Positions 4,632 to 17,436 of a DNA stretch of 22,684 nucleotides are shown here, in pieces (the first letter of the stretch is position 1; every line of letters starts with the position of its first letter). The notes beneath the pieces were generated by a model. It was not told where the DNA came from and searched no databases. It was given only the letters and a program-made list of their open reading frames with translations. Source of the DNA: Prevotella sp. (GTDB taxonomy: Bacteria > Bacteroidota > Bacteroidia > Bacteroidales > Dysgonomonadaceae); the NCBI GenBank assembly GCA_031285625.1, contig JAITVV010000041.1, positions 1-22,684 on the forward strand. Reading direction: 5' to 3'. A program made the translations under genes and the position numbers.

Positions 4632-4991
4632 TTATATAGTAATTTTTGTTAGTTCTTTAACTAGTTCGGATAGATTTAGTTCTTGTTTCATCATTTCCTT
4701 TATTTTCTGCGATCCGGCTTCTGTTAATGTAAAAATCATTTGACGTTTATCTACAGCACCCATTTCACGAATGATATATCCCTTTGTCTCAACTGTATTG
4801 ATAATACGTGAAACTCTGGAATTGGATAAACCGACAAAACCACACAATTCATTTGCAGATTTAGGTTTTCCATCTTTCATACAACAAAGAACCATACCTT
4901 CATTAATGGTAATTCCATTTTTTTCGGCAAATTCTTTTTCAAAATTATATAAAGATTTATATATATCTTTTAATTTACAGATCTCTTCCAT
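4632..4991 (-). CDS. MarR family transcriptional regulator
   Basis: wHTH (LSNSRVSRIINTVETKGYI) and DKR...LT..G wing. It has four Cys. Confidence 0.9.
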   Translation of the reverse strand: MEEICKLKDIYKSLYNFEKEFAEKNGITINEGMVLCCMKDGKPKSANELCGFVGLSNSRVSRIINTVETKGYIIREMGAVDKRQMIFTLTEAGSQKIKEMMKQELNLSELVKELTKITI

Positions 4992-4996
4992 TACAC

Positions 4997-5017
4997 ATAT
5001 TTGCTATTAGAAAATAT
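4997..5017. promoter_or_regulatory. Putative MarR autoregulatory operator
   Basis: ATATTTGCTA-T-TAGAAAATAT is a palindrome with one mismatch, immediately upstream of the marR start. Confidence 0.55.
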
Positions 5018-5101
5018 TCACAAAGAAAACTATTTATTTTTGATTTACAAAATAAAAACACGATTTATAATTTTATAATAAGAATTTATGATATATGTAG
5101 C

Positions 5102-5129
5102 TGATTTTTAAAAATCAAATTTATCTTTG
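5102..5129 (+). promoter_or_regulatory. Promoter of the histone H1-like gene with an adjacent perfect palindrome
   Basis: TATCTTTG at 5122-5129 fits TAnnTTTG. TGATTTTTAAAAATCA at 5102-5117 is a perfect 16-bp palindrome. Confidence 0.5.
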
Positions 5130-5156
5130 TGTCTTGATTTTTTAAAAATAAAAAGA

Positions 5157-5333
5157 ATGAAAAATTTAGTAGAAAAACTGAAAGAAGACTTCGAAGCATT
5201 CGCAAAGGATGCAGCATCACAAATTGAAAGCGGAAACAAAGCAGCAGGACAACGTGCACGTAAAGTATCGTTAGACATAGAGAAAGCTTTGAAAGAATTC
5301 AGAAAAGTATCTGTTGAAGCTTCAAAAAAATAA
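5157..5333 (+). CDS. Histone H1-like (Hc1 family) nucleoid protein
   Basis: GNKAAGQRARKVSL...KEFRKVS signature. ATG 5157 follows an A-rich leader. Confidence 0.88.
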   Translation: MKNLVEKLKEDFEAFAKDAASQIESGNKAAGQRARKVSLDIEKALKEFRKVSVEASKK

Positions 5334-5358
5334 TATTACTTACTATTTGTAATATTGT

Positions 5359-5390
5359 AAAGGATTATTCTGGTTGAATAATCCTTTTTT
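5359..5390 (+). terminator. Intrinsic terminator
   Basis: AAAGGATTATTC-tggtt-GAATAATCCTTT followed by a T-tract. Confidence 0.85.
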
Positions 5391-5495
5391 ATTGAATCTC
5401 CTCGCAGATTAATACGAACTTTTAATATTAGGATTAACGATATCAATTATTTTCTCTATTTTTAATCAGCTGAGAAGCAACATCTTGATTATTTT

Positions 5496-5625
5496 ATTAA
5501 AAAAATCTTCTCAAAGCTATTGCAGGATTCAAATCCTTATCCTATCTTTGCATCGCATTTGAGAGATAATGCAACCTCAAAAAAACGGTGTGGTAGTTCA
5601 GCTGGTTAGAATACCTGCCTGTCAC
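5496..5625 (+). repeat. attL direct repeat (tRNA promoter, leader and 5' half of tRNA-Asp)
   Basis: 130 bp matching 17221-17352 except one substitution (GCAACC/GCAGCC) and A7 versus A9. Contains the -7 box TATCTTTG at 5543-5550. Confidence 0.95.
5587..5625 (+). pseudogene. Truncated 5' half of tRNA-Asp(GTC)
   Basis: GGTGTGGTAGTTCAGCTGGTTAGAATACCTGCCTGTCAC, after which identity to the tRNA stops at the end of the anticodon loop. Confidence 0.92.
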
Positions 5626-5660
5626 AAAGTAACAAGTTTAAAATATAACTCAATATATCA

Positions 5661-5696
5661 AGCAATTACAGTAAAATGTAGTTGCTTTTTTCTTTT
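5661..5696 (+). terminator. Terminator just inside attL, overlapping an IHF-consensus site
   Basis: AGCAATTACA-gtaaaa-TGTAGTTGCT followed by a T-tract. TATCAAGCAATTA at 5656-5668 fits WATCAANNNNTTR. Confidence 0.7.
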
Positions 5697-5719
5697 GGTT
5701 AAGGTATTGGTTAAAACAA
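5696..5719 (+). repeat. Putative integrase arm-type sites, left end
   Basis: Tandem 12-mers TGGTTAAGGTAT and TGGTTAAAACAA. The same motif recurs at 16993-17016 and 17050-17061. Confidence 0.7.
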
Positions 5720-5804
5720 GTGTTTTTTACCATGATTGATTAATAATTTATTGTTAATTCACTCTGTAAAATATCCTAACATAATGGATAGGAAAGTTAT
5801 GTTA

Positions 5805-6413
5805 TTATAGTTTATTATTAAAATATAGATTTATGGAATCAAATAATATAAGGACTCCTTTATCTTCATCTATAGATTTTGCATATAGATATAATTCATT
5901 AAGAGTATTTGAAAAATTAAGATTTGGATTATTAAGAAATCTGTTTCTATTATTAGTAGTATGCTCTTTTATCATATCATAGTCATATTTAAAATTACTC
6001 CAAGTTAAATATTTCTCAAACTTTTCATGTAATTCTATAATCCAATCAATAGAAGTATTTACTATTAAATCCCAAGCTAATTTATCTTGATATTTTTCTA
6101 ATAATTCAGCATCCCAACATAATACAGACATATTGAGCCAAAGCATACCCCAATCCCATTTATCAGAGAATTTATTTATTAATTCTACAGACCACTTTAT
6201 ATGCTTATTTGAAGATACTTCTTTCCAATTTAAAACAGCTTCCCATTCTTCTAATAAATCTATATCAAATGGATAATAAAGAGAGAAATTTTTAACAGGT
6301 GATTGCACTCTGTATAACGTTTTTATCTTCTCTTGCATATCTATTCTAATATTATCTTCAAAACCTATTTGAACTATAGTTTTATCTTCTTTAGTGATTA
6401 CTTCTATTATCAT
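5805..6413 (-). CDS. Hypothetical protein with ~25-aa tryptophan repeats
   Basis: Repeating W..EL(I/L)EK(F/Y).DK.(D/A)W...(S).N units. Confidence 0.7.
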   Translation of the reverse strand: MIIEVITKEDKTIVQIGFEDNIRIDMQEKIKTLYRVQSPVKNFSLYYPFDIDLLEEWEAVLNWKEVSSNKHIKWSVELINKFSDKWDWGMLWLNMSVLCWDAELLEKYQDKLAWDLIVNTSIDWIIELHEKFEKYLTWSNFKYDYDMIKEHTTNNRNRFLNNPNLNFSNTLNELYLYAKSIDEDKGVLILFDSINLYFNNKL

Positions 6414-6420
6414 ATTTTTT

Positions 6421-6729
6421 TTAAGTTATAAAACTCATATTGTATTGGATTTTCTTTGATTTACATTTAGGGCAAAATAGTTTTTTTTCTCTTTCTAATA
6501 TACCTCCACAGCTACAATGTATTTGTTTATTATTATGCCAATCTTTGATTGATTGGAATTGTCCACATAATTGACATTGTAGCCCTGTTGTCGAGGTATT
6601 TAAACCATGAGTAAACGATACTATTTCTTTCTGATAGTTGCAGTCTAAGCATTGAATAATTCCTATACCTCCTATCTTCCAAAAATACAGATAGGTATCT
6701 TTTTCTGTAGTTTCTATTTGAGATTTCAT
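6421..6729 (-). CDS. Small multi-zinc-ribbon protein
   Basis: CLDC, CQLC, CSC and CPKC Cys pairs in 102 aa. Confidence 0.75.
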   Translation of the reverse strand: MKSQIETTEKDTYLYFWKIGGIGIIQCLDCNYQKEIVSFTHGLNTSTTGLQCQLCGQFQSIKDWHNNKQIHCSCGGILEREKKLFCPKCKSKKIQYNMSFIT

Positions 6730-6745
6730 TATTTACTTCAAGTAA

Positions 6746-7231
6746 TCATTTTATACGTACATAAGTGACAGAGTCGTTACTGATATTTGGAGTTGGTTGT
6801 ATCAATATCATTTTATTATTTTCTATAAAACCTTCATAGGTGTTTGAAGGAGTTTCATTTGTTGTAATTGATAGAGAAGAATAATTATTTTGATAATAAC
6901 TATATACTTTTTGTGTTGTATTTGTTATAACGAAAGAAACATTATCATTATAGCTATCTTTGGATTCCTCGATCTTTTCAAATAAAACATCTATATTATT
7001 CTGAAAAGTATATTTTATAGTTGTTCTACTCATATGATATTTTGTAATCCATACTTCTCGCCCATTTTCCCATTTATCAAAAACAGGATATGAAAAGGCA
7101 GAGCCAAATTGTGTTTGCCATGATGTACCAATTATATCGTATTTTATATCTTGGGTTTCTTCTTCATTTTTATCACATGAAGTAACAGAGATAAGATACA
7201 TTACTATTAAAATAATTTTTAGTGTTTTCAT
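6746..7231 (-). CDS. Hypothetical lipoprotein
   Basis: MKTLK-hydrophobic-TSC lipobox followed by acidic DKNEEE and a beta-rich body (IIGTSW). Confidence 0.75.
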   Translation of the reverse strand: MKTLKIILIVMYLISVTSCDKNEEETQDIKYDIIGTSWQTQFGSAFSYPVFDKWENGREVWITKYHMSRTTIKYTFQNNIDVLFEKIEESKDSYNDNVSFVITNTTQKVYSYYQNNYSSLSITTNETPSNTYEGFIENNKMILIQPTPNISNDSVTYVRIK

Positions 7232-7233
7232 TT

Positions 7234-7887
7234 TTAATTCATTATAGTGTATAAAATGTTAAATTTTCTAATTGCTGATATGTATTCTGATATATTCTGA
7301 ATAAATAGTGATTTATGAACATACAATTCATAAACTTGGAAGTCCTTACTTACCTTCTTGAAATCGTTTAAATCTAATCCTACTATAATTTTTTGAGGAT
7401 GCTCATTTAGAATAGATAGGAAATTATCACTATTAAATGGTATTATAACACTCATTGTATTAATAGCCTGAGTGTAGAATTTTCCTTCTTCAACCTTTTT
7501 TAACTCTGTTATTTGTAATTCTATAGTGTCTTTTCTTTTATCAGGACTTTTAGATTTATCAAAATTTATGACTAAAAAATCTTTTATCTTTTGAGTATCT
7601 GTATAGCAACTAAGATGTTTATATACAGTTATAATATTACCTTTAGGTAGCTCTTTGGTTTGCACCTCTCTAAAATCATCAAGATTGATAGGTATGTAAG
7701 AATTAACTAAACTCATTAAATCAAATAAGTTCTTTTCTGTTGAAGGATATACTAAGGTTATAGTTTCTGTTGATGAAAAATATGTGCTATTATTTTCTTC
7801 ATTTATAGGTGATACTTCAACAAATAAGACTTCACCTATCTCATTATCTGTTTTTCCATTAATATTCAATATTTTATATTTTTCCAT
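7234..7887 (-). CDS. Hypothetical protein with an apparent two-fold internal repeat
   Basis: 217-aa ORF. INLDDFREV...VYKHLS and LDLNDFKKV...YVHKS suggest duplicated domains. Confidence 0.7.
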   Translation of the reverse strand: MEKYKILNINGKTDNEIGEVLFVEVSPINEENNSTYFSSTETITLVYPSTEKNLFDLMSLVNSYIPINLDDFREVQTKELPKGNIITVYKHLSCYTDTQKIKDFLVINFDKSKSPDKRKDTIELQITELKKVEEGKFYTQAINTMSVIIPFNSDNFLSILNEHPQKIIVGLDLNDFKKVSKDFQVYELYVHKSLFIQNISEYISAIRKFNILYTIMN

Positions 7888-7952
7888 GAAATAAAATGTA
7901 TTAATTGCTTACTCTAAATCAGTTTTCAGCATCCCTGTTTTTATTTATATTG

Positions 7953-9284
7953 CTATAATATATCTTCCCAAAATTTCTGATCTTGTTGGTCTATATCAAG
8001 CCCTGAATTATAATATTCACTATCATAAATAGATTTATGTTCCTGATAATTATTACATTGTTTTTGAATAACTTTAGTATTATTCTCTTTTAATGATAAT
8101 ACTGCTCCATGATTAATTAGAAGCTTAATAATCTCAGTATTATTATCTTCATAAGCCTTATCTAAAACAGTTTTATCTTTATATCCATTATCATTTATAT
8201 CTAATCCATTTTCTATTAAAAGTGCTAACATTGAGGAAGATATATATCCATATGCTTTAAATAGTAAGGAAACAGTATAATAATAATGAGCATCATAATA
8301 TCTTGTTTCAGTATAGTTAGAACAATATTCATAATTATAATCTTCATGCTCATAACTCTCTAATTTCTCTTCATGTATTGATACAGTAAGTTTAGAGCCT
8401 TTTTGAATTAAGTAGTTGACAATATCTATATGGTTATTTTGAATTGCATATAGGAGTGCTGTATTTCCTTTTCTATCTTCTAAGTTTATGTATTCTTCTT
8501 CTCTAATATGGTTAGATATGAAGCTTCTTCTTATAGAAGTTGATTTATTATATTCCTCTTCACATACTTTATTATGCTCTACTAGTTTCTTAACTATATC
8601 TGTATAGCCCATTTTTGAAGCTATATGTAGTTCACAAGGATAACATTCTTCAAGGTATTGATAGCCATAATAAAGGTTAGAAAAATAGGAATGAGAGTAG
8701 CTTGTGCGTTTATGAAATATCAAGCCCCCTTCTTTATCATTATCTAGTAAGTAATCAATGATTTCTGTATACCTATTTTTAACAGCTTCATATAAAGCTC
8801 TAAACCATTCTTCCAAAGGAGTACAATATTGAATATTTTCAACATGAATAAGAAAAAACTTTAAGGCTTCTAAATTTCTTTTTTCAGAAGCATCTGATAG
8901 AGAGAAAATCCCTTGTTTCCTGTATTTTTCTAAAATATTATTCTCTGGTGCTTCATTTATCTGATAATCTTTATTTTCATCTATTTTGGCTTGAATTTCT
9001 TCTTTACTTAAAGTGTTTGGTTGAGTATTATTATCTAATATCGCACTTCTTATCTTTCTTTTTCTTATGGATGGGGGAATAGTAGGTTGAGGATTACTTA
9101 TTACACTATCACTATTAAATAATGAAGTTGCTTCTTCTACTATTTCTCCTACTTCTTCTGTTGTTTCTTCAGATATTACTTGAGCTTTATTAGAATCTAA
9201 TCTTTCTTGTTTTGCTTCATTTAAAGCTGTATTTCTACTAGGTCTTCTCTTTCTAGGAGAAGGTTCTTGAGGTTTTCTTCCCAT
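7953..9284 (-). CDS. Ankyrin repeat protein with a disordered basic N-terminus
   Basis: GNTALLYAIQNNHIDIVNYLIQKG, LHIASKMGYTDIVKKLVEH and TVLDKAYEDNNTEIIKLLINHGA. Confidence 0.85.
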   Translation of the reverse strand: MGRKPQEPSPRKRRPSRNTALNEAKQERLDSNKAQVISEETTEEVGEIVEEATSLFNSDSVISNPQPTIPPSIRKRKIRSAILDNNTQPNTLSKEEIQAKIDENKDYQINEAPENNILEKYRKQGIFSLSDASEKRNLEALKFFLIHVENIQYCTPLEEWFRALYEAVKNRYTEIIDYLLDNDKEGGLIFHKRTSYSHSYFSNLYYGYQYLEECYPCELHIASKMGYTDIVKKLVEHNKVCEEEYNKSTSIRRSFISNHIREEEYINLEDRKGNTALLYAIQNNHIDIVNYLIQKGSKLTVSIHEEKLESYEHEDYNYEYCSNYTETRYYDAHYYYTVSLLFKAYGYISSSMLALLIENGLDINDNGYKDKTVLDKAYEDNNTEIIKLLINHGAVLSLKENNTKVIQKQCNNYQEHKSIYDSEYYNSGLDIDQQDQKFWEDIL

Positions 9285-9310
9285 ATCAATACCTTTGTTG
9301 TTGAGGTATC

Positions 9311-9480
9311 AATAAAATAAAGTAGGCATGATACTATCCTTACTGCTATCAAGGTAGTCACCACAACACCCAGCCACAATAAGGAAGCTCATGCCTATAA
9401 CATGAACATCTACTTATTACTGTTGTGGCTAATTTAAAAGTGGTGAATTTTTGATAGCACTAGTAATAAAGCAATGCTTT
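9311..9480 (-). ncRNA. Putative structured leader/antisense RNA with alternative (terminator/antiterminator) pairings
   Basis: Nested stems 9344-9352/9451-9459, 9358-9364/9440-9446 and 9372-9379/9423-9430 compete with 9323-9331/9389-9397 and 9337-9345/9377-9385, which are followed by a U-rich tract on the minus strand. A TAnnTTTG box lies at 9542-9549 (-). Confidence 0.65.
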
Positions 9481-9697
9481 ATATTATGTATATCCTAATC
9501 TATTTTATCTCTCCATATTATTAATGATTAAATATTTATGACAAAAATAACTATTTTATCAAGAATAGAATCATTTAACAGAAGAAGATTAGACTATAAT
9601 ATTGGCATGAGCTCATAGCCCACTATCTTGATAGCAAATAAATAAAATATATGATTACAAAATAGAATACTACAAGGCTTGCAGTTCTTATATAGTT

Positions 9698-10978
9698 TTA
9701 AAATGGAAAGCTATCTTCTGTATCATCATCAGAAGCAATGTAGTTATAGTGTTTTTTATGTTTGATATATTCAAATGGAGTTTTGATTACATCTACTTTT
9801 ATTTCAACTTCTTCTAATGTGACTAGATTTCTGTCTAAGCTAATCTTTTTTGGAGTGGCTCTATTGCCCGTAATAAAATAGTTATCAGCAATAGCTTCAT
9901 CAAAATGCTTAATAAAGGCTTCTCTTATTCTGGAGCATTTCTCATTGATAGAATTTAATGTTGGATTAACAATATCATTGATGCTTTTCTCCATATCACC
10001 AATATTTTCTCTTCCTGATACTTTCTTATATATAGCAATTAGTTCATCTCTGTAGTCAGGTAAATTCTTAAATAATATTCCTTCTGGATGATTCAAAAAT
10101 AAGAAAAATACAGCTTTAGGAAGTGGATACATGGTTATTTCCAAATTATTATAGTCTGGTAGAATAATCTTATATTCATTAGTGATAATAAGCCTGCTTA
10201 ACTTCACTGAATCAATAGAAAATATGGATTTCAACACCATCTCATTGATACCTTTTTGCTTCAAAGCTGCAATACGTTCCTTAATTTCTTCTATTAGCTT
10301 TTGGGATTCAGAATCAAATTCATAGTCTGCATTGTCATCTGGATTTTCTATGTAAGGATAGGGAGGAGGGGAAGCACTGTATAATACATTGCCAGCACCA
10401 ACAGCACTTAAGTAAGCTCTGATCTGCTCCCATATTTCAGTTTTATCTAAATTGCTGAATTGATAATAGGAGAAGATATAGTAGTCATCTTCATTATCCT
10501 TATATCTTAACAAACCTCCTTCTAATGTAATAGCTACATCAGTGAAAGACATTGTTTTATCAATAATGTTCTGAGAAATTAAGCTGCTAGGTATAACATT
10601 CTTTTTATTTAATGTAGGATTTATATATTGGGCTTCTTCAATGCTTAAAGTCTTTATAAGTTTTGGTATATAAGTGAAATTATAACCTTTCTCTTCAAAT
10701 AAATTACATATCCCTTCATATTCCTTTGAGATAAAATTATTTAACTCCTCATTGAAATACTCTTCAAAATATATTACTTGTAGCTTATCTGGTATAAATG
10801 GAATATTTTTTTTGATTTTAATAATCAATGGTGGTTTTAAATACACTTTATCCATGAGATTTTTCTTTTCATCTAAAATACTGCTTTTTCTACAATAAGA
10901 AAATTTCCTAAGATAATGATATAAAAAATAGCACAGATACTTATTATAGTTTAGAAAGTACCTGTGCTGAAAACTCAT
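9698..10978 (-). CDS. Hypothetical protein with a C-terminal winged-helix-like domain (putative regulator)
   Basis: EITMYPLPKAVFFLFLNHPEGI...SINEKCSRIR...YFITG resembles an OmpR-type wHTH. Acidic tail DDDTEDSFPF. The start may be the downstream Met at 10855. Confidence 0.7.
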   Translation of the reverse strand: MSFQHRYFLNYNKYLCYFLYHYLRKFSYCRKSSILDEKKNLMDKVYLKPPLIIKIKKNIPFIPDKLQVIYFEEYFNEELNNFISKEYEGICNLFEEKGYNFTYIPKLIKTLSIEEAQYINPTLNKKNVIPSSLISQNIIDKTMSFTDVAITLEGGLLRYKDNEDDYYIFSYYQFSNLDKTEIWEQIRAYLSAVGAGNVLYSASPPPYPYIENPDDNADYEFDSESQKLIEEIKERIAALKQKGINEMVLKSIFSIDSVKLSRLIITNEYKIILPDYNNLEITMYPLPKAVFFLFLNHPEGILFKNLPDYRDELIAIYKKVSGRENIGDMEKSINDIVNPTLNSINEKCSRIREAFIKHFDEAIADNYFITGNRATPKKISLDRNLVTLEEVEIKVDVIKTPFEYIKHKKHYNYIASDDDTEDSFPF

Positions 10979-11378
10979 TTCTCTTTTACTTGTAATTTAG
11001 GACATTATAAGATGCAAAATTTAACAGAGAATTTTAGTTTATACTCTTCTGTTACATTTTTTGTCTTAGCTATTTTTATATAGAATGTCTAATTTCAGAT
11101 ACAAAAAAAAGTAATTATTATCACTCTTTCTTTCTGTTGGCTGGTTCATTGCATATCACATATAGGATAATATATCCTACAATAACTTTTAGCACTATTT
11201 CTAAAAATAATATCATAATGATTAAATAATTAAAGCCCCATCCATTACTGAATGAGGCTAATACAATAATAATAAAAAAGGTAATTAATATTCTTATAAA
11301 AGAAGAATATAAAGTTATCTCTCTTTATCTTTGACTTAAGCTCTTTGTTATATATAGATGTAAATGAGAAAGTTTTGA

Positions 11379-12233
11379 TTATTCTCCAATATATATTCTC
11401 CTAAATTTATTAAGACAATAATCTCTAGAATCTTCTATACTACAATCCTTAAATTTCCCAAATAATAGATACTCTAAAACTTCAAGATTATCATTATCTC
11501 TATAGTAATTACTAAAAGGGTTAGGATAAAAATTGAAATCTAAGATTTCAACATTTTCATATCTACTATCAAAGTTTATTGGAATTATTTCGTCTGCAAT
11601 AATCCATTCTATTCTTAAAAAGGAATGAATTATTGAACCAAACATGATAATTTTGTCTTTAAAATATAGAGGGATAGTAGCCCCATTTCCAAGTAAATCA
11701 GCAAATCTATCTGCTTTCAATAAATCTGTTACATCATTAGCAAAATGTATAATAGAATTTATTTGGAAAAATATCTGAAAGTTTTGAATATAATTCTCTC
11801 CTTTTATAAAAGATGATAAACTGCTTACATCAATCAATCTACAGCCTTTATCATCATGGCTCTTACAGCCTGCATGTTTTGCTATATATTTATAAAAATC
11901 TATTTTCTTCTGTTTCCATTTTGTACCATAAATATTCATGAAATCTATCTTGGAAGATGCTGCAATTTCATCATAACTATTTAGTACATAAGATAAGAAC
12001 TCATTGTAAGCATCATCAGCAGGTTTTGTTAATTCATTATTACAAAAATCACAAATTATTTGGGGGAATTTAAGCACTCTATCCTTTGAAGTATTTATTG
12101 AAGTGAGGCCACTTTCATTTATATAAAAACCATTGAATTTTTTACCTTTCATTAGTTTTCTTATTTCAGAAGCTTTAATTTTATGCTCTCCTGAATTAGC
12201 TTGATTCTCATTACATATCCAGCACTTTTGCAT
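11379..12233 (-). CDS. HNH-type nuclease domain protein
   Basis: N-terminal CWIC...EHKI...CDFCNN zinc-binding HNH pattern plus an unknown C-terminal domain. Confidence 0.7.
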   Translation of the reverse strand: MQKCWICNENQANSGEHKIKASEIRKLMKGKKFNGFYINESGLTSINTSKDRVLKFPQIICDFCNNELTKPADDAYNEFLSYVLNSYDEIAASSKIDFMNIYGTKWKQKKIDFYKYIAKHAGCKSHDDKGCRLIDVSSLSSFIKGENYIQNFQIFFQINSIIHFANDVTDLLKADRFADLLGNGATIPLYFKDKIIMFGSIIHSFLRIEWIIADEIIPINFDSRYENVEILDFNFYPNPFSNYYRDNDNLEVLEYLLFGKFKDCSIEDSRDYCLNKFRRIYIGE

Positions 12234-12297
12234 TTTCTAATTTATGTCTATAGTTAGATAAGGCTTCACTTGAAACCCTATCCAAATATAGAAAAAT

Positions 12298-13344
12298 TCA
12301 CTCAATAAACCACCTATACTCCTTATCTCCATGCAAAGCCTTATTAATGCCATGTACTAATTCAGTAGCATTTAAAGACCTGTCTAAGAAATTATCAATA
12401 TAACTACTCTTATTAGCCCCTGTAAACAAGTTATAAACATTCCACAGGCTGATAGAATTTGCTTCTCCAATACTGAAATTATCATCATTATAATAAGATT
12501 TAGCTACAGCATTTATATGAGTATCTGTAAATATCATTTCAGGTAATAACTTCTTCTCTTTTGGTGGTAAACATTGATACAGTTTTGATTTACCTATAAA
12601 TTGTGCAAACTGATGTTCTGTCATAGATGTATCTTTGAAAGAGTTCATCAAATGTAAGTGCCTTGCTGGGTTATAGAGTTGGATTAGTTCCATAACAGCT
12701 TTAAACAAGTCTGTTGCACTCATAATTTTAATCTCAGTCTTATAACCATCAGAAGATACACACATATTGCAACATACCAGATTCTTAAAGCCTATGAATA
12801 CTTTAAACTTCTCTGCTCCTTTCTTACTATACAGGTTCTCATGATTATAAGCTCTTACTCCTCCAATAGATAAATTAAGCCTGTTGCCCTCAATATCCTG
12901 ATAGATAGATGGTATTTCAAAACAGAAAGCCATCCTTTCATAATAAATAGTCTTATCACTCTCTAATAACTGATTGACTGGCTTATGTATTGCTTCTGAA
13001 ACTCTCCCTTTAATAACATGGGAAACTCTTATATCAGGCTCTAAAAACCTCTCATTAGGAAAGAATTTATTGGCTGCATTCCAGACTGTTTCTATAAAAT
13101 TGGAATGACTGATTGTTATTTCATTATCTTTAGAAAAGACAGGAACAACACATTCATTCTTTAAATGGAATAAGTCTGTTTCTTTGGTATTTGCTTCAAT
13201 AAAATGCTTTGCATTACTCCTCTCTAATGGTCTTTCTGATAGTGGGGTAATATCAATAATATTAGGGGTATATTCTGAATGATTATTTCTACTTTCAGGT
13301 AATATAATATTTGGTTTAATTTGTAATAGTTGCATTGTTTCCAT
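12298..13344 (-). CDS. DUF3871 family protein
   Basis: FIEANT...ECVVPVFSKDNE.TISH, YYERMAF, GGVRAYN and NLFTGANKSSYID match this Bacteroidetes family as I recall it. Confidence 0.85.
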   Translation of the reverse strand: METMQLLQIKPNIILPESRNNHSEYTPNIIDITPLSERPLERSNAKHFIEANTKETDLFHLKNECVVPVFSKDNEITISHSNFIETVWNAANKFFPNERFLEPDIRVSHVIKGRVSEAIHKPVNQLLESDKTIYYERMAFCFEIPSIYQDIEGNRLNLSIGGVRAYNHENLYSKKGAEKFKVFIGFKNLVCCNMCVSSDGYKTEIKIMSATDLFKAVMELIQLYNPARHLHLMNSFKDTSMTEHQFAQFIGKSKLYQCLPPKEKKLLPEMIFTDTHINAVAKSYYNDDNFSIGEANSISLWNVYNLFTGANKSSYIDNFLDRSLNATELVHGINKALHGDKEYRWFIE

Positions 13345-13450
13345 ACTTAAATTATGTTTGATAAATTAATAATAGATTGGTTTTTCTTAAAATTTGAATA
13401 GCTATTTATCTTAAATTCATATCATAACTATTTTGTATTTAAAAGGCAGT

Positions 13451-13486
13451 AAAAAAACAGGTAAGGAATATTTAAACTCCTTACCC
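13451..13486 (-). terminator. Intrinsic terminator after the 90-aa gene
   Basis: Minus strand GGTAAGGA...TCCTTACC stem followed by T7. Confidence 0.75.
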
Positions 13487-13508
13487 TTAAATATTAAAGT
13501 ATTGTATT

Positions 13509-13781
13509 TTATAATTTAGCTAAGGTTGTAGCTCCTGATGTTTCTCCTCTTTGATGCAGTAAGAAAAACATTTCTCCTGTCATTGGTACACATACTTGAG
13601 ATATAACAGGCATGGTTACTTCTCCTGTAATAACTCTTTTGGAACAAGCCCCTGTTTCTACTCCATAGGTAAAGAAGCATTTACCTGTAGATTCATTCCT
13701 TTTAATTTCAATCTCATGTACTTGTTGATTGTTTTTGAAGTCATTTACTGACCATGTTTGTAAGAATTTTAGATTTTCCAT
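13509..13781 (-). CDS. Small hypothetical protein (beta-rich, possibly OB-fold/SSB-like)
   Basis: 90-aa ORF with an A-rich leader and its own terminator. The fold is only inferred. Confidence 0.75.
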   Translation of the reverse strand: MENLKFLQTWSVNDFKNNQQVHEIEIKRNESTGKCFFTYGVETGACSKRVITGEVTMPVISQVCVPMTGEMFFLLHQRGETSGATTLAKL

Positions 13782-13811
13782 ATCACTTATTTTTTATATT
13801 AATATTTCAAC

Positions 13812-14013
13812 ATAGGGGGATTAACCCAATTTCCAAGTGACAGGCGGTGTTAAGTTATGATTATCTCACTCTTAAATACATATCTTGTTACACTCTAGCA
13901 GCAGCAGAAGAAAAAAGATAAAATAGTTATGTTATTTTATTGCTTCTGGTGGTGGGGTATTGGATTTATTAATAAAAAGGTAGGGGGATGTATAATCTCA
14001 CTTAAGCACATAT
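13812..14013. repeat. Structured intergenic region (candidate origin or ncRNA)
   Basis: Two TAGGGGGAT copies (13813, 13981), two ATWATCTCACT..TAA..ACATAT copies (13860, 13992) and a central hairpin at ~13904-13948. Confidence 0.55.
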
Positions 14014-14017
14014 AAAC

Positions 14018-14053
14018 AAAAAGCTAACAGGGGATTAATTTTTCTGTTAGCTT
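14018..14053 (-). terminator. Intrinsic terminator after the polymerase-like gene
   Basis: AAGCTAACAG...CTGTTAGCTT stem with a T-tract on the minus strand. Confidence 0.75.
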
Positions 14054-14074
14054 AAAATTGCAATCGTATGAATA

Positions 14075-15670
14075 CTATAACTTCATTAAAGCTTCTTTAT
14101 AATTCCAGTAATCAGTTTCTAATTTTGGAGGCACTCCAATAGTATTAGTTAATTCTTCTTCCATTATATTTTTAACAAAATTGAGATTCTCTACTGTAGT
14201 AACTATTGAGTCATGTATAGTAAATATAGGAATTTCCTGATTGCCTTCTTCCCAAACTCTTTTGCAGCATCTATGTAATACAATCTCACTTTCTATAGAT
14301 TGCAGTAAGCAAGCCAATGTTGCATGGTCTGTTGATTTTATTAATCTAAATACTTCATATACATTTGGGTGTATTTTAGAGAACATTTTTTTATGCTTAT
14401 ACATAGGCTGATTCAGATACTGATTTTTAGAAAAAAACACTTCAAACATCATATCTTTTACCTTTTGTCTGTCTATTTCTCTCCCTGATTCTTTTTTGAT
14501 TTGATCAATCATATATTCATAAAAATTTCCTTCTGAGACTTTTCTTTTATATGAGTTAATCTCCTGTGTATTTGTTATGTTATTTGTATAATCTTTTAAT
14601 ATTTTGTGTAATGGTGTGTTGTTAATAATTGTATTATTTATAAGTGTTTGAATGTTGGTTGGTAGATGAGTATAATTAAATTGAGTTGAAGTATTATCCC
14701 AAAATTGAGGGCTAAATAATATACAGGCTAGGTATGGTTGGCTATTTTTTATATCTAAATTTACTAGCCTTCTTCCTTCAAAAGTGATGAAATTTCTATA
14801 TACACTTTCCATGTTAGTCATTGCAGAGTGTAACCTGTGAACATTTGTATCTATCTTAGCATTATAATCATGTGTAGATAAAGAGTACAAATTGAATTGA
14901 ATAGCTCTTTTTTGAGTTTTGGGATGAATCTTATCTCCTTTCTTAGTCTTACTATTTTTCCATGTATTATATCCATCTTTAATTTTCTTCTCTGTGTAAT
15001 CGGATGCAAATTTTAAGGCTTTGTTAATATCAATATTTAACCCTTTCTGGGCATACCAATATCTTAAATAAGGATAGTTCAATAGAGGGTTATCAATTTC
15101 TATCCCTTCATCATTAAATATGCTGCTAGGAATAGTTTCTGTTTCTTTATTTATATGCCCTTTATATAGAATTATTTTAAGGGGTACATCTGCATACTTT
15201 TCTGTAAATCTATACCCATAAGATTTTTCATTTTTAATATAATGATTATCACACTCAATTACACCAGTATCAATTAAATAATCAAGATAATTTTTATAAT
15301 CTTTGAGAATAAAATCTCTAATTAGAGTTGAGTTAATTGGGACATAATCATCCTCAAAAATATTATTTTTATTATGGGCTGGAATAATAGTAATTAGGCT
15401 AATTACATACAAGAGCCTGTCTTTATCATAATAAATATTACTGCCTTTAGCCTTTAATTTACCATTATCAGACAAATAAAATCTATAATTAACAAGAGGG
15501 TATTTTTCTATATGCTCATCTATATCTAAATTTTCTGGAATAAAAGCCGATTTACCACTATGTTTAAATGCAACAACATTAAAAATGCCAAAAAACTTAA
15601 ATCTTTTATTGTCAGATATATTATCATTATCTTTTCCAAATAAATTCTTTAAATAATTAAATATACTCAT
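14075..15670 (-). CDS. Minimal family-A-like (TV-Pol-like) polymerase with an N-terminal wHTH-like region
   Basis: Collinear PolA motifs: HRLHS (GRLSS), motif A LDIKNSQP, motif B R.KVK.MMF..FF, LQSIESEI (IQGTAADI) and motif C TIHDSI. No exonuclease motifs recognised. Confidence 0.72.
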   Translation of the reverse strand: MSIFNYLKNLFGKDNDNISDNKRFKFFGIFNVVAFKHSGKSAFIPENLDIDEHIEKYPLVNYRFYLSDNGKLKAKGSNIYYDKDRLLYVISLITIIPAHNKNNIFEDDYVPINSTLIRDFILKDYKNYLDYLIDTGVIECDNHYIKNEKSYGYRFTEKYADVPLKIILYKGHINKETETIPSSIFNDEGIEIDNPLLNYPYLRYWYAQKGLNIDINKALKFASDYTEKKIKDGYNTWKNSKTKKGDKIHPKTQKRAIQFNLYSLSTHDYNAKIDTNVHRLHSAMTNMESVYRNFITFEGRRLVNLDIKNSQPYLACILFSPQFWDNTSTQFNYTHLPTNIQTLINNTIINNTPLHKILKDYTNNITNTQEINSYKRKVSEGNFYEYMIDQIKKESGREIDRQKVKDMMFEVFFSKNQYLNQPMYKHKKMFSKIHPNVYEVFRLIKSTDHATLACLLQSIESEIVLHRCCKRVWEEGNQEIPIFTIHDSIVTTVENLNFVKNIMEEELTNTIGVPPKLETDYWNYKEALMKL

Positions 15671-15764
15671 CTGTTAATTCATTATGTTAGGATATTTATA
15701 TTATGGTAAAATTAAGAAAAAGAACACATATAAAAATGTATTCTTTCCCTTAATTATCTCACAT

Positions 15765-16973
15765 TTATAGCAGGTACTTCATAGCTTCATCAATCTGACT
15801 ATTTTCAAAGCTATCTAAATATATCTGAGTGGTCTTTAAATCTGAATGCCCTAGAGTTTCTCCAATTAAGGCAATATTTACACCAGAGTTCTTTAATACT
15901 GTTGCATAACTATGTCTTGAAACATAGGTAGTGAGATTAACCTCAATACCTGTCATCTGTGATATTTTCTTTAAATACCTGTTCACTTTCAATATGACTT
16001 TCTTCTTCCTGTTATATTGCTGCATCTTGGTTTTATGTATAGTGTGATCCAGTATAGGAAAGATATATTCATTATTAGAATCAATATACATCTTCATTAT
16101 CTCTTTGGCTTCATCACAGATAGGTACATTTATTTTTCTGTGTGTTTTCTGCCTAATATACATAAGTCTGTCATTAGTTATATTATTGTGCTTCAAATTA
16201 GCCATATCAGAGAAACTAATACCACTGCATAAGTAGCTAAACACAAATAAATCTCTGCTGAGTTGGATATATTCCTTTTCTTTAGATAGGTCAAGATTCA
16301 TAATGAGCTTTACATTGTCTTTTGAGATAGCTCTTTTCTCAGTTCTTATGCTGAATTTGGAGATTTTGAAGTCATTGAAAGGGTATGTATCTCTTTTAGC
16401 ATATCTTCTCTCTATAGCCTTGTTATAGGTACTTCTCAGAGTTCTAAAAAATAGATTCATGGAGCTATCCTTACAATTTCTACTTCTTAACCACTTCTCA
16501 TAACCTAGCAAAAAGTTCATATCAATATCAGAGAAGGGAATATCTAATTTGCTCTTATAATAGGCTTCTAATGATCTCAGGGAGTCTTTATATACTCTTG
16601 AATTACCTATTTTATCAGATTGTTCCATTTCTTTTATTAGTTCTGTATAGAACTCATTTACACTCTTTAGCCTATGCTTTTCTTTGGGCTTAATTAATGT
16701 TGAGGCTGTAAATTCCTTCTCTTCTGCTTTTAGTTCTAATATCTTCTTTTGAAGCTCTGCTTTTCTATCAATGATTATCTTTTCAATATAATCTCTGTTA
16801 GGACAATTTGTTTTAGGCTGATTCTTGCTAAAATCCCAAAATGTCGGATTTATGGATATGCCTAAACTTTTGTACCTAGTTTTTCTGTCCTTACATATTC
16901 TAATCATTATAGGACTTTCTCCATTTGATAACTTTTTCCCTCTAAAACAAATTACATTTACTGTTGTACTCAT
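15765..16973 (-). CDS. int: Tyrosine integrase, Bacteroidetes IntDOT-like
   Basis: Arm-binding N-terminus (NGESPIMIRI...YKSLG), SAM-like domain and catalytic GISFSD / RQKT / YVSRHSYA / LGHSDLKTTQIY. Adjacent to attR. Confidence 0.95.
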   Translation of the reverse strand: MSTTVNVICFRGKKLSNGESPIMIRICKDRKTRYKSLGISINPTFWDFSKNQPKTNCPNRDYIEKIIIDRKAELQKKILELKAEEKEFTASTLIKPKEKHRLKSVNEFYTELIKEMEQSDKIGNSRVYKDSLRSLEAYYKSKLDIPFSDIDMNFLLGYEKWLRSRNCKDSSMNLFFRTLRSTYNKAIERRYAKRDTYPFNDFKISKFSIRTEKRAISKDNVKLIMNLDLSKEKEYIQLSRDLFVFSYLCSGISFSDMANLKHNNITNDRLMYIRQKTHRKINVPICDEAKEIMKMYIDSNNEYIFPILDHTIHKTKMQQYNRKKKVILKVNRYLKKISQMTGIEVNLTTYVSRHSYATVLKNSGVNIALIGETLGHSDLKTTQIYLDSFENSQIDEAMKYLL

Positions 16974-16992
16974 GATTCATTTAGTTGAATCA

Positions 16993-17061
16993 TGGTTAAA
17001 ACACTGGTTAAAACAAAACACTTCAAACCCTTTATTCAAGCCATTTTCATGGTTCAAACAT
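16993..17061 (+). repeat. Putative integrase arm-type sites, right end
   Basis: TGGTTAAAACAC TGGTTAAAACAA (16993-17016) and TGGTTCAAACAT (17050-17061), in the same orientation as the left-end copies. Confidence 0.7.
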
Positions 17062-17220
17062 TTTACTGAAAAATCAATGCAATTTTCCTGCAATTTTAAT
17101 ATTGAAATGATAAACTTTTAATTTTACTGACTAAGACAAGTTATTCAAACTCCTTTTCTACAAAAGATTCTCTAAAGACTGTATTTTTACCACTCTGATA
17201 AACAACTATTTGCAAAATAC

Positions 17221-17352
17221 ATTAAAAAAATCTTCTCAAAGCTATTGCAGGATTCAAATCCTTATCCTATCTTTGCATCGCATTTGAGAGATAATGCAGC
17301 CTCAAAAAAAAACGGTGTGGTAGTTCAGCTGGTTAGAATACCTGCCTGTCAC
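17221..17352 (+). repeat. attR direct repeat (replacement tRNA promoter and 5' half)
   Basis: Near-identical to 5496-5625. The -7 box TATCTTTG is at 17268-17275. Confidence 0.95.
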
Positions 17353-17390
17353 GCAGGGGGTCGCGGGTTCGAGTCCCGTCCATACCGCCA
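17314..17390 (+). tRNA. trnD: tRNA-Asp(GTC)
   Basis: 77 nt. Acceptor GGTGTGG/CCATACC, anticodon stem CCTGC-CTGTCAC-GCAGG, T loop GTTCGAGTC and encoded CCA. Confidence 0.98.
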
Positions 17391-17395
17391 ATATT

Positions 17396-17436
17396 AAAAA
17401 CAACTCGTTGAAAATCAATGAGTTGTTTTTGCTTTT
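17396..17436 (+). terminator. Terminator after the tRNA containing an IHF-consensus site
   Basis: AAAAACAACTC..TTGA-aaa-TCAA..GAGTTGTTTTT hairpin. AATCAATGAGTTG at 17413-17425 fits WATCAANNNNTTR. Confidence 0.8.

Follow-up and report, generated by a model that had tools for sequence, protein, structure and literature searches.

A tRNA-Asp-integrated Bacteroidales island with a predicted TV-Pol-type minimal family-A polymerase

We analyzed a contig of 22,684 nucleotides (nt) from a Prevotella sp. (GTDB lineage Bacteroidales, Dysgonomonadaceae; assembly GCA_031285625.1, contig JAITVV010000041.1), referred to below as the window, and found that it contains a real, well-bounded and non-conjugative Bacteroidales island of 11,727 bp integrated at a tRNA-Asp gene. 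The island probably has a maintenance module arranged around a gene (pol) whose 531-amino-acid (aa) product is, by its predicted fold, a minimal family-A polymerase of the TV-Pol type. This gene lies between the genes for a tyrosine integrase (int) and a 90-aa protein, and the gene for a DUF3871 protein follows. The original prediction, made from the letters of the DNA, had described an element with this core and had proposed that it might represent an uncharacterized class. Its observations of the open reading frames (ORFs), the polymerase motifs, the attachment (att) ends and the gene content were borne out, and that of "structured" intergenic DNA was not (z -0.95). The interpretation stood for the minimal family-A polymerase, the TV-Pol hallmarks and the linkage to an integrase, and failed for the uncharacterized class and for the core gene order, which was found in 1 of 80 related loci.

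The four genes are on the minus strand, exactly where they had been placed: int (15765-16973, 402 aa, with the Pfam domains Arm-DNA-bind_5, Phage_int_SAM_5 and Phage_integrase), pol (14075-15670, assigned by fold, motifs and family alignment), the 90-aa ORF (13509-13781, supported by an alignment and by relatives) and the DUF3871 gene (12298-13344, 348 aa; PF12987, E 3e-148). There are 11 ORFs in the element. Ten of them, all except that at 6421-6729, were scanned against Pfam (E ≤ 0.01), and nine, all except int and an ankyrin-repeat ORF, against NCBIfam and PHROGs (E ≤ 0.1). In the libraries against which each was scanned, none of the 11 matched a Rep, relaxase, helicase, primase or capsid family, in agreement with the absence of such genes noted from the sequence.

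Predicted fold and family of the polymerase

We modeled the structure of the polymerase with AlphaFold2, using an alignment of its family. The model had a predicted local distance difference test score (pLDDT) of 85.4 and a predicted template modeling score of 0.82, with disorder only at residues 1-37. A Foldseek search of the PDB with this model gave 119 matches at E ≤ 1e-3, and all 50 of the 50 matches listed were family-A DNA polymerases. A second search (VIA), which is independent of Foldseek and covered 48,161 chains, returned in its top 20 rows only family-A DNA polymerases and RNA polymerases of the T7, N4 and mitochondrial kinds. The top five were DNA polymerases: apicoplast Pol (Z 14.5, root-mean-square deviation (rmsd) 4.0 over 274 aligned residues), Aquifex Pol I (13.8), Pol nu (13.7), T7 DNA polymerase (13.5) and Klenow (13.5). 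RNA polymerases followed with yeast mitochondrial RNA polymerase (12.4), T7 RNA polymerase (9.6) and the 404-aa N4 RNA polymerase II (9.5). Over eleven family-A or T7-like chains at Z 14.5-11.4, between 262 and 290 residues were aligned with an rmsd of 3.5-4.7. At rank 21, the first unrelated structure, Z fell to 6.6, and family-B enzymes were found at 6.1-5.3 on the shared palm. The right-hand palm fold that had been expected for 14075-15670 is thus predicted by the model and by both searches. Among predicted viral structures (BFVD), phage proteins of 400-450 aa gave the best matches (E 7e-23, TM of 0.76 relative to the target) and ranked above ordinary phage Pol I; none of the 50 rows listed was named Sputnik or V13, and about half were nameless.

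The predicted polymerase core spans residues ~176-526 and comprises a thumb, a beta-hairpin, a palm and fingers. The thumb is formed by two long antiparallel helices (215-232 and 250-265), and the hairpin surrounds R279. In the palm, D306 closes the strand 300-307 and H486-D487 lie in the hairpin 483-492, while R401 and K405 are in the helical block of the fingers. All four structural hallmarks of TV-Pol (two-helix thumb, beta-hairpin Arg, two palm Asp residues and RxxxK in the fingers) were therefore present in the model, as the original assignment to this family implied. The N-terminal domain (residues ~38-175) is mixed alpha/beta in the full-length model, with five helices and six short strands. 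Its structural matches were weak and winged-helix-like (VIA, Z 4.8-5.1). No exonuclease was found among them, and the core is minimal, consistent with the earlier observation that exonuclease motifs are missing. There were no nuclease families among the scanned recurrent neighbors of pol.

Sequence searches were much less informative. Neither Pfam (E ≤ 0.01), NCBIfam nor the PDB, the last searched with the single sequence and with a profile, gave anything meaningful for pol, and the PHROGs match was to an unnamed family over 46 residues (E 9e-4). The protein did not reach the gathering threshold of PF00476 (DNA_pol_A), and a PF00476 search of the same genome recovered only the host polA, on another contig. 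Because profile searches and a profile-profile comparison (hhalign) were insignificant, the assignment to family A is carried by the fold prediction and not by sequence. With that basis, we conclude that the 531-aa protein is, as modeled, a minimal family-A polymerase without an exonuclease domain and belongs to the A/T7-like superfamily.

The five motifs quoted in the original prediction occur in the stated order: HRLHS (278-282), LDIKNSQP (305-312), R401..K405..F409, LQSIES (456-461) and IHDS (485-488). We aligned 46 of the 120 listed homologues, which have 37-76% identity. Twelve of the residues in or near these motifs were invariant in the alignment (R279, D306, N309, S310, Q311, K405, Q457, E460, S461, H486, D487 and S488), including both catalytic Asp residues, D306 and D487, whose conservation had been anticipated. 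R401 and F413 were each kept in at least 90% of the 46. Because the motifs are invariant or nearly so across these homologues, they are not due to chance. The reading frame of pol in the window is intact, and every residue that is invariant in the alignment is present.

The polymerase belongs to a large family. Of the candidates scored in a collection of 5.8 billion proteins, 487 were homologues at E ≤ 1e-3, and an exhaustive search gave 3820 clusters at 50% identity, with 2137 at ≤1e-10 and 574 at E ≤ 1e-30. None of the 120 listed homologues had a Pfam family, and those with a name from their source were called "hypothetical". Fused forms of pol were not found at E ≤ 1e-3 among proteins of 931-2655 aa, which is weak evidence.

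More distant homologues were found on phages and on a plasmid. Six uncultured phage genomes of 595-735 kb have homologues at 22-27% identity. In IMG/VR there were 15 loci with pol homologues; of the twelve more distant ones, ten (L123-L132) encode proteins of 385-473 aa, or a 227-aa piece truncated at a contig end, and are too short for the N-terminal domain. One short relative (L126) adjoins a tail-sheath gene, and distant relatives of ~390 aa occur in tailed-phage contigs. A 524-aa homologue (L081; 28% identity, E 3e-43) is encoded at 2824-4398 of p_unnamed4, a 35-kb circular plasmid of Hymenobacter qilianensis. This plasmid is typed as non-mobilizable, 10 of the 11 annotated genes in a 12-kb stretch are "hypothetical protein", and none is named for replication. 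The pol homologue may be the replicase of the plasmid.

The island, its sister elements and related loci

The ends of the island were defined by a direct repeat of part of a tRNA gene, in keeping with the att-bounded element originally described. There is one tRNA gene in the window, an intact tRNA-Asp(GTC) at 17314-17390 on the plus strand (ARAGORN; Rfam tRNA, 66 bits), with its 5' end toward the element. The sequence at 5454-5625 is repeated at 17179-17352 with a spacing of 11,727 nt, and the repeat has a first part of 132 nt with 86% identity and then an identical core of 47 nt. It contains the tRNA-Asp leader and the 5' half of the tRNA and ends in the anticodon loop. The attL core (5579-5625, plus strand; CCTGTCAC) is a copy of the last leader bases and the tRNA 5' half up to the anticodon loop, within the wider repeat from 5454, and the attR-side repeat (17179-17352, plus strand) comprises the 5' half of the reconstituted tRNA-Asp together with its leader. 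The integrated element (5626-17352, all genes on the minus strand) was recognized by the spacing of the repeat, by its composition (G+C of 0.24-0.32, compared to 0.34-0.44 in the outer flanks) and by an empty site in a congener. In this same-genus genome (G004; L089) the tRNA-Asp gene and right flank are 99% identical to the window over 3493 nt and the element is absent; the close match consists of the tRNA and the right flank, and further left, beyond the tRNA leader, G004 is unlike the left flank of the window. Two other genomes of the genus, G007 and G013, have sister elements whose far ends meet the tRNA 5' half at the identical base, with 33/36 and 35/36 identical positions beyond the core. 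From this shared junction base, and from the match of those far ends to the end of this element, we place the element at 5626-17352. A tyrosine integrase adjoining a tRNA gene, a far-end repeat of part of that gene and an empty site in a relative, which are the criteria for a genomic island, were all found.

The 5' end of the tRNA gene, and not its 3' end, points to the integrase. Islands usually have the mirror-image arrangement. Because the repeat spans the leader and the 5' half to the anticodon loop, the element appears to supply both the promoter and the 5' half of tRNA-Asp. By the logic of recombination, there is moderate support for an attP that carries the tRNA leader and 5' half and donates them to the host on integration. 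The 99% match to G004, which runs from 17225 onward, had suggested that the leader on the attR side is host DNA; we set this aside since the two copies of the leader block are almost the same (86/87). Further upstream, congeners were somewhat closer to the attL copy than to the attR copy (39/55 compared to 28/55 for G003, and 36/64 compared to 28/61 for G004). We did not find a description of 5'-side tRNA integration of such an island in the literature searched.

There were two further observations near the ends. A block of ~80 nt upstream of tRNA-Asp (17226-17305 and 5500-5578) is near-invariant at several loci per genome across the genus, and probably represents a common promoter or leader of tRNA genes. 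The region 4632-5453 is low in G+C. It separates the attL leader from the last gene that is syntenic with congeners, similarity to which ceases near 5055, and is unrelated to the G004 sequence on the left side of the tRNA leader; it may represent what is left of another insertion, or else a rearrangement.

We compared the neighborhood of pol in related loci, using one genome per species. There were 155 loci that matched the search pattern, of which 147 were confirmed and 80 kept. ORFs were called in these loci, neighbors within 8 kb were clustered, and hidden Markov models (HMMs) were made from the window proteins and their relatives. According to their titles, the 80 loci are from Bacteroidota (Bacteroidales, Flavobacteriales, Chitinophagales, Sphingobacteriales and Cytophagales) except for three contigs of metagenome-assembled genomes labeled Clostridium, "bacterium" and Promethearchaeota. 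The pol family is nearly confined to Bacteroidota, with hosts that include human-gut Bacteroides, Parabacteroides, Alistipes and Odoribacter as well as marine Flavobacteriia. The Clostridium-labeled locus (L001), which has a full module of pol, small protein, AAA_24 ATPase and DUF3871, and the 2.3-kb Promethearchaeota-labeled contig (L024) both have typical Bacteroidota versions of pol, and their labels are most likely binning errors rather than signs of transfer.

The predicted linkage between pol and the integrase was conserved. An integrase-cluster gene was present within 8 kb in 68 of the 80 loci, within 700 nt in 51 of these 68, and without any intervening ORF of at least 60 aa in 32 of them. 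The position of pol beside int is constant across the orders of Bacteroidota, and the cargo, which includes defense genes and TonB receptors, is variable. In 45 of the 68 integrase-bearing loci there was a tRNA gene within 700 nt outside int, and in 41 of these 45 its 3' end faces the element. The orientation seen in the window was found in the other four, three tRNA-Ser loci of Dysgonomonas and L078.

The other partners of pol were far less constant. DUF3871 was present in 29 of the 80 loci, the 90-aa small protein in 18, and an ATPase of the AAA_24 family in 31. The ATPase of the relatives was recognized by PF13479 (E 3e-19) and, at E 2e-8, by the PHROG "Sak4-like ssDNA annealing protein". 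In 46 loci, including those of marine Flavobacteriia with the order int, HTH_17, pol and cargo, pol occurs without any of the three. The order pol, small protein, AAA_24, DUF3871 was found in 13 loci of Bacteroidales, and two more loci have pol, small protein and AAA_24 followed by a contig end. In 15 loci, from Weeksellaceae and others, AAA_24 and then DUF3871 are transcribed divergently from pol, and int is usually convergent downstream of pol; one further locus has AAA_24 divergent from pol and then a contig end. There were two loci with pol and the small protein alone. Only one locus (L023, from Dysgonomonas hofstadii) has the order of the window, in which pol and the small protein are followed by DUF3871 without AAA_24. 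The 90-aa ORF, 293 nt downstream of pol in the window, is directly downstream of pol in the relatives too, all 18 of them of the Bacteroidales type. In 28 of the 29 loci with DUF3871, it is preceded by AAA_24. The window has no AAA_24 by six-frame HMM search, and the 284-aa ORF after DUF3871 is unrelated.

The proposed core order of int, pol, small ORF and DUF3871 is therefore not a conserved one, and neither is the core fixed, as pol is missing from sister elements that share the tRNA-Asp site and have near-identical integrases. Because architectures vary across loci and sister elements, we regard int and pol as the conserved unit, and the small protein and the AAA_24-DUF3871 pair as separable cassettes. 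These cassettes also combine with other large enzymes. In G007 (L090; G007:C98), int is followed by a 958-aa SF2 helicase, AAA_24 and DUF3871. The helicase, which has ~700 uncharacterized C-terminal residues, is in the position of pol, and this arrangement is an in-situ replacement among replication-type enzymes. In G013 (L091; G013:C11), int is followed by a NACHT protein and, further on, by a 724-aa protein without a family match, an HTH_36 protein, the small protein and DUF3871. Across 35 genomes of the genus the distribution was patchy, with pol in 7 and DUF3871 in 9, sometimes together and sometimes apart.

The absence of a D5 helicase, noted originally for the window, extends to the relatives, in which no D5-like helicase was seen. 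A helicase gene is located just upstream of pol in 8 of the 80 loci and is either UvrD-type (L002, L004 and L009) or DEAD-like (L001, L008, L017, L018 and L023). The DEAD-like proteins form a family of 700-830 aa between int and pol; the representative (L018:7590-9941) had only a DEAD-box match at E 0.003 and no PHROG match. This family may be an uncharacterized helicase partner of pol.

Known systems and the probable role of the polymerase

A subset of TV-Pols without a D5 helicase, with an extra N-terminal domain and located beside lambda-type integrases, resolvases or transposases, was described in 2008, with bacteroidetes among the hosts (PMC2579912). These integrase-linked TV-Pols were proposed, by computation, to be primase-polymerases of self-replicating mobile elements (PMC2579912). 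The polymerase of the window resembles them in having no nuclease domain, an extra N-terminal domain and a lambda-type integrase as a neighbor in a bacterial island, and its family has the integrase context in 68 of 80 loci. It fits the integrase-linked subset by structural hallmarks and context, as modeled, and not by sequence comparison with named TV-Pols. Because of this fit to the subset of Iyer 2008, the element is not a new class, and the original suggestion of one does not hold. There are two differences. The TV-PolN domain is predicted to be all-helical, compared to the mixed alpha/beta domain here, a distinction that rests on its published description. In addition, the main text of the 2008 report does not mention the 90-aa protein, the Sak4-like AAA_24 ATPase or DUF3871 as recurrent partners; its supplement lists all TV-Pol neighborhoods, and some of these partners may already appear there (PMC2579912). 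The kind of polymerase has been predicted already; we did not find its recurrent partners described in the literature searched, nor a Bacteroidota element with an integrase, a PolA-like enzyme and DUF3871.

The one relative of this kind with biochemical data is CcPol of SCCmec. CcPol together with MP starts DNA chains de novo with dNTPs, and CcPol alone only extends primers (PMC7581432). As of 2020, no other TV-Pol had a biochemical characterization (PMC7581432), and we found no later characterization in the literature searched. Like CcPol-MP and the PolA-SSB pairs (SSB, single-stranded-DNA-binding protein) of Bacillota, the island has an element-borne family-A polymerase with an intact active site, directly followed by a small (beta-rich) protein without a recognizable domain (PMC7581432; PMC10061031). 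In contrast to the CcPol-MP system, which has a serine recombinase and a downstream helicase in the operon, the island has a tyrosine integrase and no helicase among its ORFs, and a helicase is upstream of pol in 8 of 80 relatives. A 3'-5' exonuclease remnant was not seen in pol. The PolA-SSB pairs are reported only from Bacillota (PMC10061031), whereas the present host belongs to Bacteroidota.

Two further comparisons are more remote. Pipolins, with which the original prediction drew a parallel, are alike in concept only, as integrase-bounded and often tRNA-integrated elements with a polymerase as hallmark gene; piPolB is a primer-independent family-B enzyme, and pol, which is family A by fold, has no homology to it. 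In the Sak4-SSB modules of phages (PHROG 124; AAA_24) the comparison concerns the accessory genes. Relatives of the island place a Sak4-like RecA-family ATPase right after the small protein, next to pol, whereas the window has no ATPase, and the 90-aa protein is no more than a candidate SSB. To our knowledge, DUF3871 is not part of described Sak4 modules.

On balance we lean toward a role for pol as a primase-polymerase that would prime and copy the excised island. The predicted fold, the conserved active site, the mobile and replication contexts of the family and the precedents of the TV-Pols and CcPol-MP speak for it. Excision by the integrase would give a circular element for pol to copy. 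The polymerase would start DNA chains de novo at a site on the element recognized through its N-terminal domain and would then extend them, with CcPol-MP of SCCmec as the model. As an accessory or ssDNA-binding subunit, the 90-aa protein would be the leading candidate. DUF3871, which in most of the relatives that carry it is found with the Sak4-like RecA-family ATPase, would be part of a recombination or replication accessory cassette that is half lost here and can serve other replicative enzymes. Because it has neither the ATPase nor any helicase, this copy would borrow host functions or be a reduced variant.

Several observations weigh against this role. The proposed function of pol is read from gene content and a predicted fold. 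There is no recognizable helicase, initiator or origin in the element, and 46 of the 80 pol loci have no small protein, AAA_24 or DUF3871. The sister elements of G007 and G013, at the same tRNA-Asp site and with integrases that match at E 1e-219 and 1e-234, do not have pol, and pol is dispensable for this type of island. The hhalign comparison of the pol family alignment with 24 Bacteroidota PolA domains was not significant (probability 0.3%, E 0.19); in its lone local alignment, which is insignificant alone, R401, K405, F409 and F413 fall on the helix O residues R..K..F..Y and H486-D487 on the HD in motif C. Motif C reads HDS, the form found in T7 RNA polymerase, and the Pol I form is HDE. 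Two homologues (P0062 and P0082) are named "DNA-directed RNA polymerase" in UniRef. Given the HDS motif and these two names, the nucleotide substrate may be either dNTP or NTP. In the Logan contigs of run X1, which is possibly the source of the assembly, the contig of the element had a word depth of 43.7, compared to 42, 36.8 and 45.7 for flanking contigs, and there was no contig joining the att sites; contigs cannot reveal rare excised forms, and this depth is not the same as copy number. The contigs of runs X2, X5 and X6 had only short conserved pieces such as the tRNA. The depth and junction data are no evidence either way on excision or over-replication.

We weighed four alternatives to a primase-polymerase. 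The least remote is that pol does not initiate at all and is instead a gap-filling or strand-displacing enzyme of a phage-like recombination module, working with the small protein, the Sak4-like ATPase and DUF3871 when element DNA, incoming or excised, is repaired or is copied in a recombination-dependent way. The occurrence of the Sak4-like ATPase with pol and DUF3871 in two different gene orders is consistent with this, as is the finding that CcPol alone is limited to primer extension (PMC7581432). We judge it unlikely, since the strongest linkage of pol is to the integrase and both the window and 46 of the 80 pol loci lack AAA_24. Because those 46 loci have neither gene of the AAA_24-DUF3871 cassette and the window has no AAA_24, pol cannot depend on that cassette. 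It is a little harder to accept that pol is a minimal single-subunit RNA polymerase like T7 RNA polymerase or N4 RNA polymerase II, which would transcribe genes of the element or make RNA primers only. The mitochondrial, T7 and N4 RNA polymerases (Z 12.4, 9.6 and 9.5) were only 1-5 Z below the best DNA polymerases, the H-D-S of motif C and the two UniRef names point the same way, and the N-terminal domain might serve to recognize promoters. On the other side, DNA polymerases fill the first five VIA ranks and every one of the 50 Foldseek matches listed, and the neighbors of pol in relatives are helicases and a Sak4-like recombinase and not transcription factors. In T7 RNA polymerase, a Tyr of helix O selects ribonucleoside triphosphates; pol has F413 (kept in at least 90% of homologues) at that position, and the spacing R-x3-K-x3-F-x3-F is that of Pol I.

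The remaining two alternatives place pol outside of present element maintenance. Defense cargo is found in such islands, with a NACHT/STAND protein in the G013 element and an ankyrin-repeat protein here that matches PDC-M72A, and pol, the small protein and DUF3871 might likewise be cargo with an anti-phage or other conflict function. This seems improbable, given that pol is fixed beside int while cargo varies, and that PADLOC at E ≤ 0.01 had no match for pol, the 90-aa protein, DUF3871 or AAA_24. That pol is a decaying relic and now inactive is hard to credit. The loss of the AAA_24 partner and, weakly, the lack of excess element depth in the contigs would fit a relic; the intact frame with all invariant residues, and the same AAA_24-less order in Dysgonomonas hofstadii (L023), would not.

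If the polymerase does prime, these islands would be autonomous replicators, which would bear on the spread of cargo such as defense genes and TonB receptors in gut and marine Bacteroidota, and PolA-type primases would be no peculiarity of Bacillota. A bolder version, which we regard as a tentative possibility and rather doubt, is a second and independent origin of PolA-based priming in Bacteroidota, in which pol would recognize a site on the element by its N-terminal domain, prime de novo and copy the 11.7-kb circle without an element-encoded helicase, aided by the 90-aa protein and DUF3871. If this were true, no smaller self-replicating integrative elements would be known from gut Bacteroidales, and there would be a function for DUF3871 and, through it, a lead on DUF932. 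The module of pol, small protein, Sak4-like ATPase and DUF3871 in any case gives genetic access to DUF3871 and offers a lead on DUF932.

Accessory proteins, intergenic DNA and cargo

The 90-aa protein belongs to a family of 735 clusters, almost all of 89-90 aa, and none of the 120 listed members has a Pfam family. There were 24 invariant columns in an alignment of 18 sequences. A PDB profile search gave no match, and the ESM Atlas had no usable one. Joint structure prediction of pol and the 90-aa protein gave a score of 0.00 in two runs made without controls, which has no bearing on binding either way.

The AlphaFold2 model of the DUF3871 protein (pLDDT 79.3) has an N-terminal domain of beta-sheet and helix and a helical C-terminal domain. 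It gave no Foldseek matches at E ≤ 1e-3, and there was no PDB profile match. The nearest folds in the VIA search, Med17 (Z 6.3), actin-capping protein (5.9) and the C-terminal domain of TnsE (5.5), were all within noise and were rejected as relatives. Neighbors of DUF3871 in a protein language model include clusters of DUF932, mostly viral. We found no functional study of DUF3871 or DUF932 in the literature searched.

The 293-nt spacer between pol and the small ORF (13782-14074) had been described as structured. It folds no better than shuffled sequences (z -0.95; equaled by 29 of 200 shuffles), and Rfam gave no match there. Two hairpins followed by T-runs were found on the minus strand. One is directly after the pol stop codon (14017-14052), with a stem of 9-10 bp and a loop of 13 nt in both the minimum-free-energy and centroid folds. 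A hairpin is in the same place in related spacers, with different letters in the stem. It is missed by a simple terminator scan because the loops in that scan are limited to 3-8 nt. The other, a terminator-like hairpin after the small ORF (13459-13486), was the sole terminator-like site in the scan of 12200-17400.

Upstream of the small ORF there is a C-rich/G-rich/C-rich box (13811-13849, minus strand), a degenerate copy of a box conserved in relatives. It lies some 30-70 nt before the small ORF, and its GGG...CCC columns are invariant in 12 aligned sequences, from the window and 11 relatives (L001, L004, L006, L008, L014, L016, L019, L022, L023, L044 and L091). The central G-run could pair with either C-run. 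RNAalifold predicted three pairs in the 12 upstream regions, of which none showed covariation, and there were no compensatory changes. The box may act as RNA or as a DNA site. Possible roles, judged from its sequence and place, are those of operator, leader, priming site or origin. In four relatives (L003, L010, L011 and L021) we saw by eye two iteron-like copies of the 8-nt sequence CT(A/C)ATTAC, ~30-45 nt apart, between this box and the small ORF; such copies were not seen, again by eye, in the spacer of the window.

The cargo of the island (5805-12233, minus strand) consists of ORFs of 202, 102, 161, 217, 443, 426 and 284 aa, without replication or transfer domains. Only the 426-aa ORF (o426) recurred among the 80 related loci, at one locus. 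Between two cargo ORFs, at 7906-7939 on the minus strand, there was a weak Rfam match to DUF805b (23.7 bits, compared to a gathering score of 35.6; E 0.005). The 443-aa ORF (7953-9284, minus strand) encodes the ankyrin-repeat protein and matches the PADLOC defense-candidate model PDC-M72A with E 7e-14. The product of the 284-aa ORF (11379-12233), near the ankyrin gene, begins with a CxxC...H pattern. It is possible that the ankyrin protein and this neighboring ORF are defense cargo.

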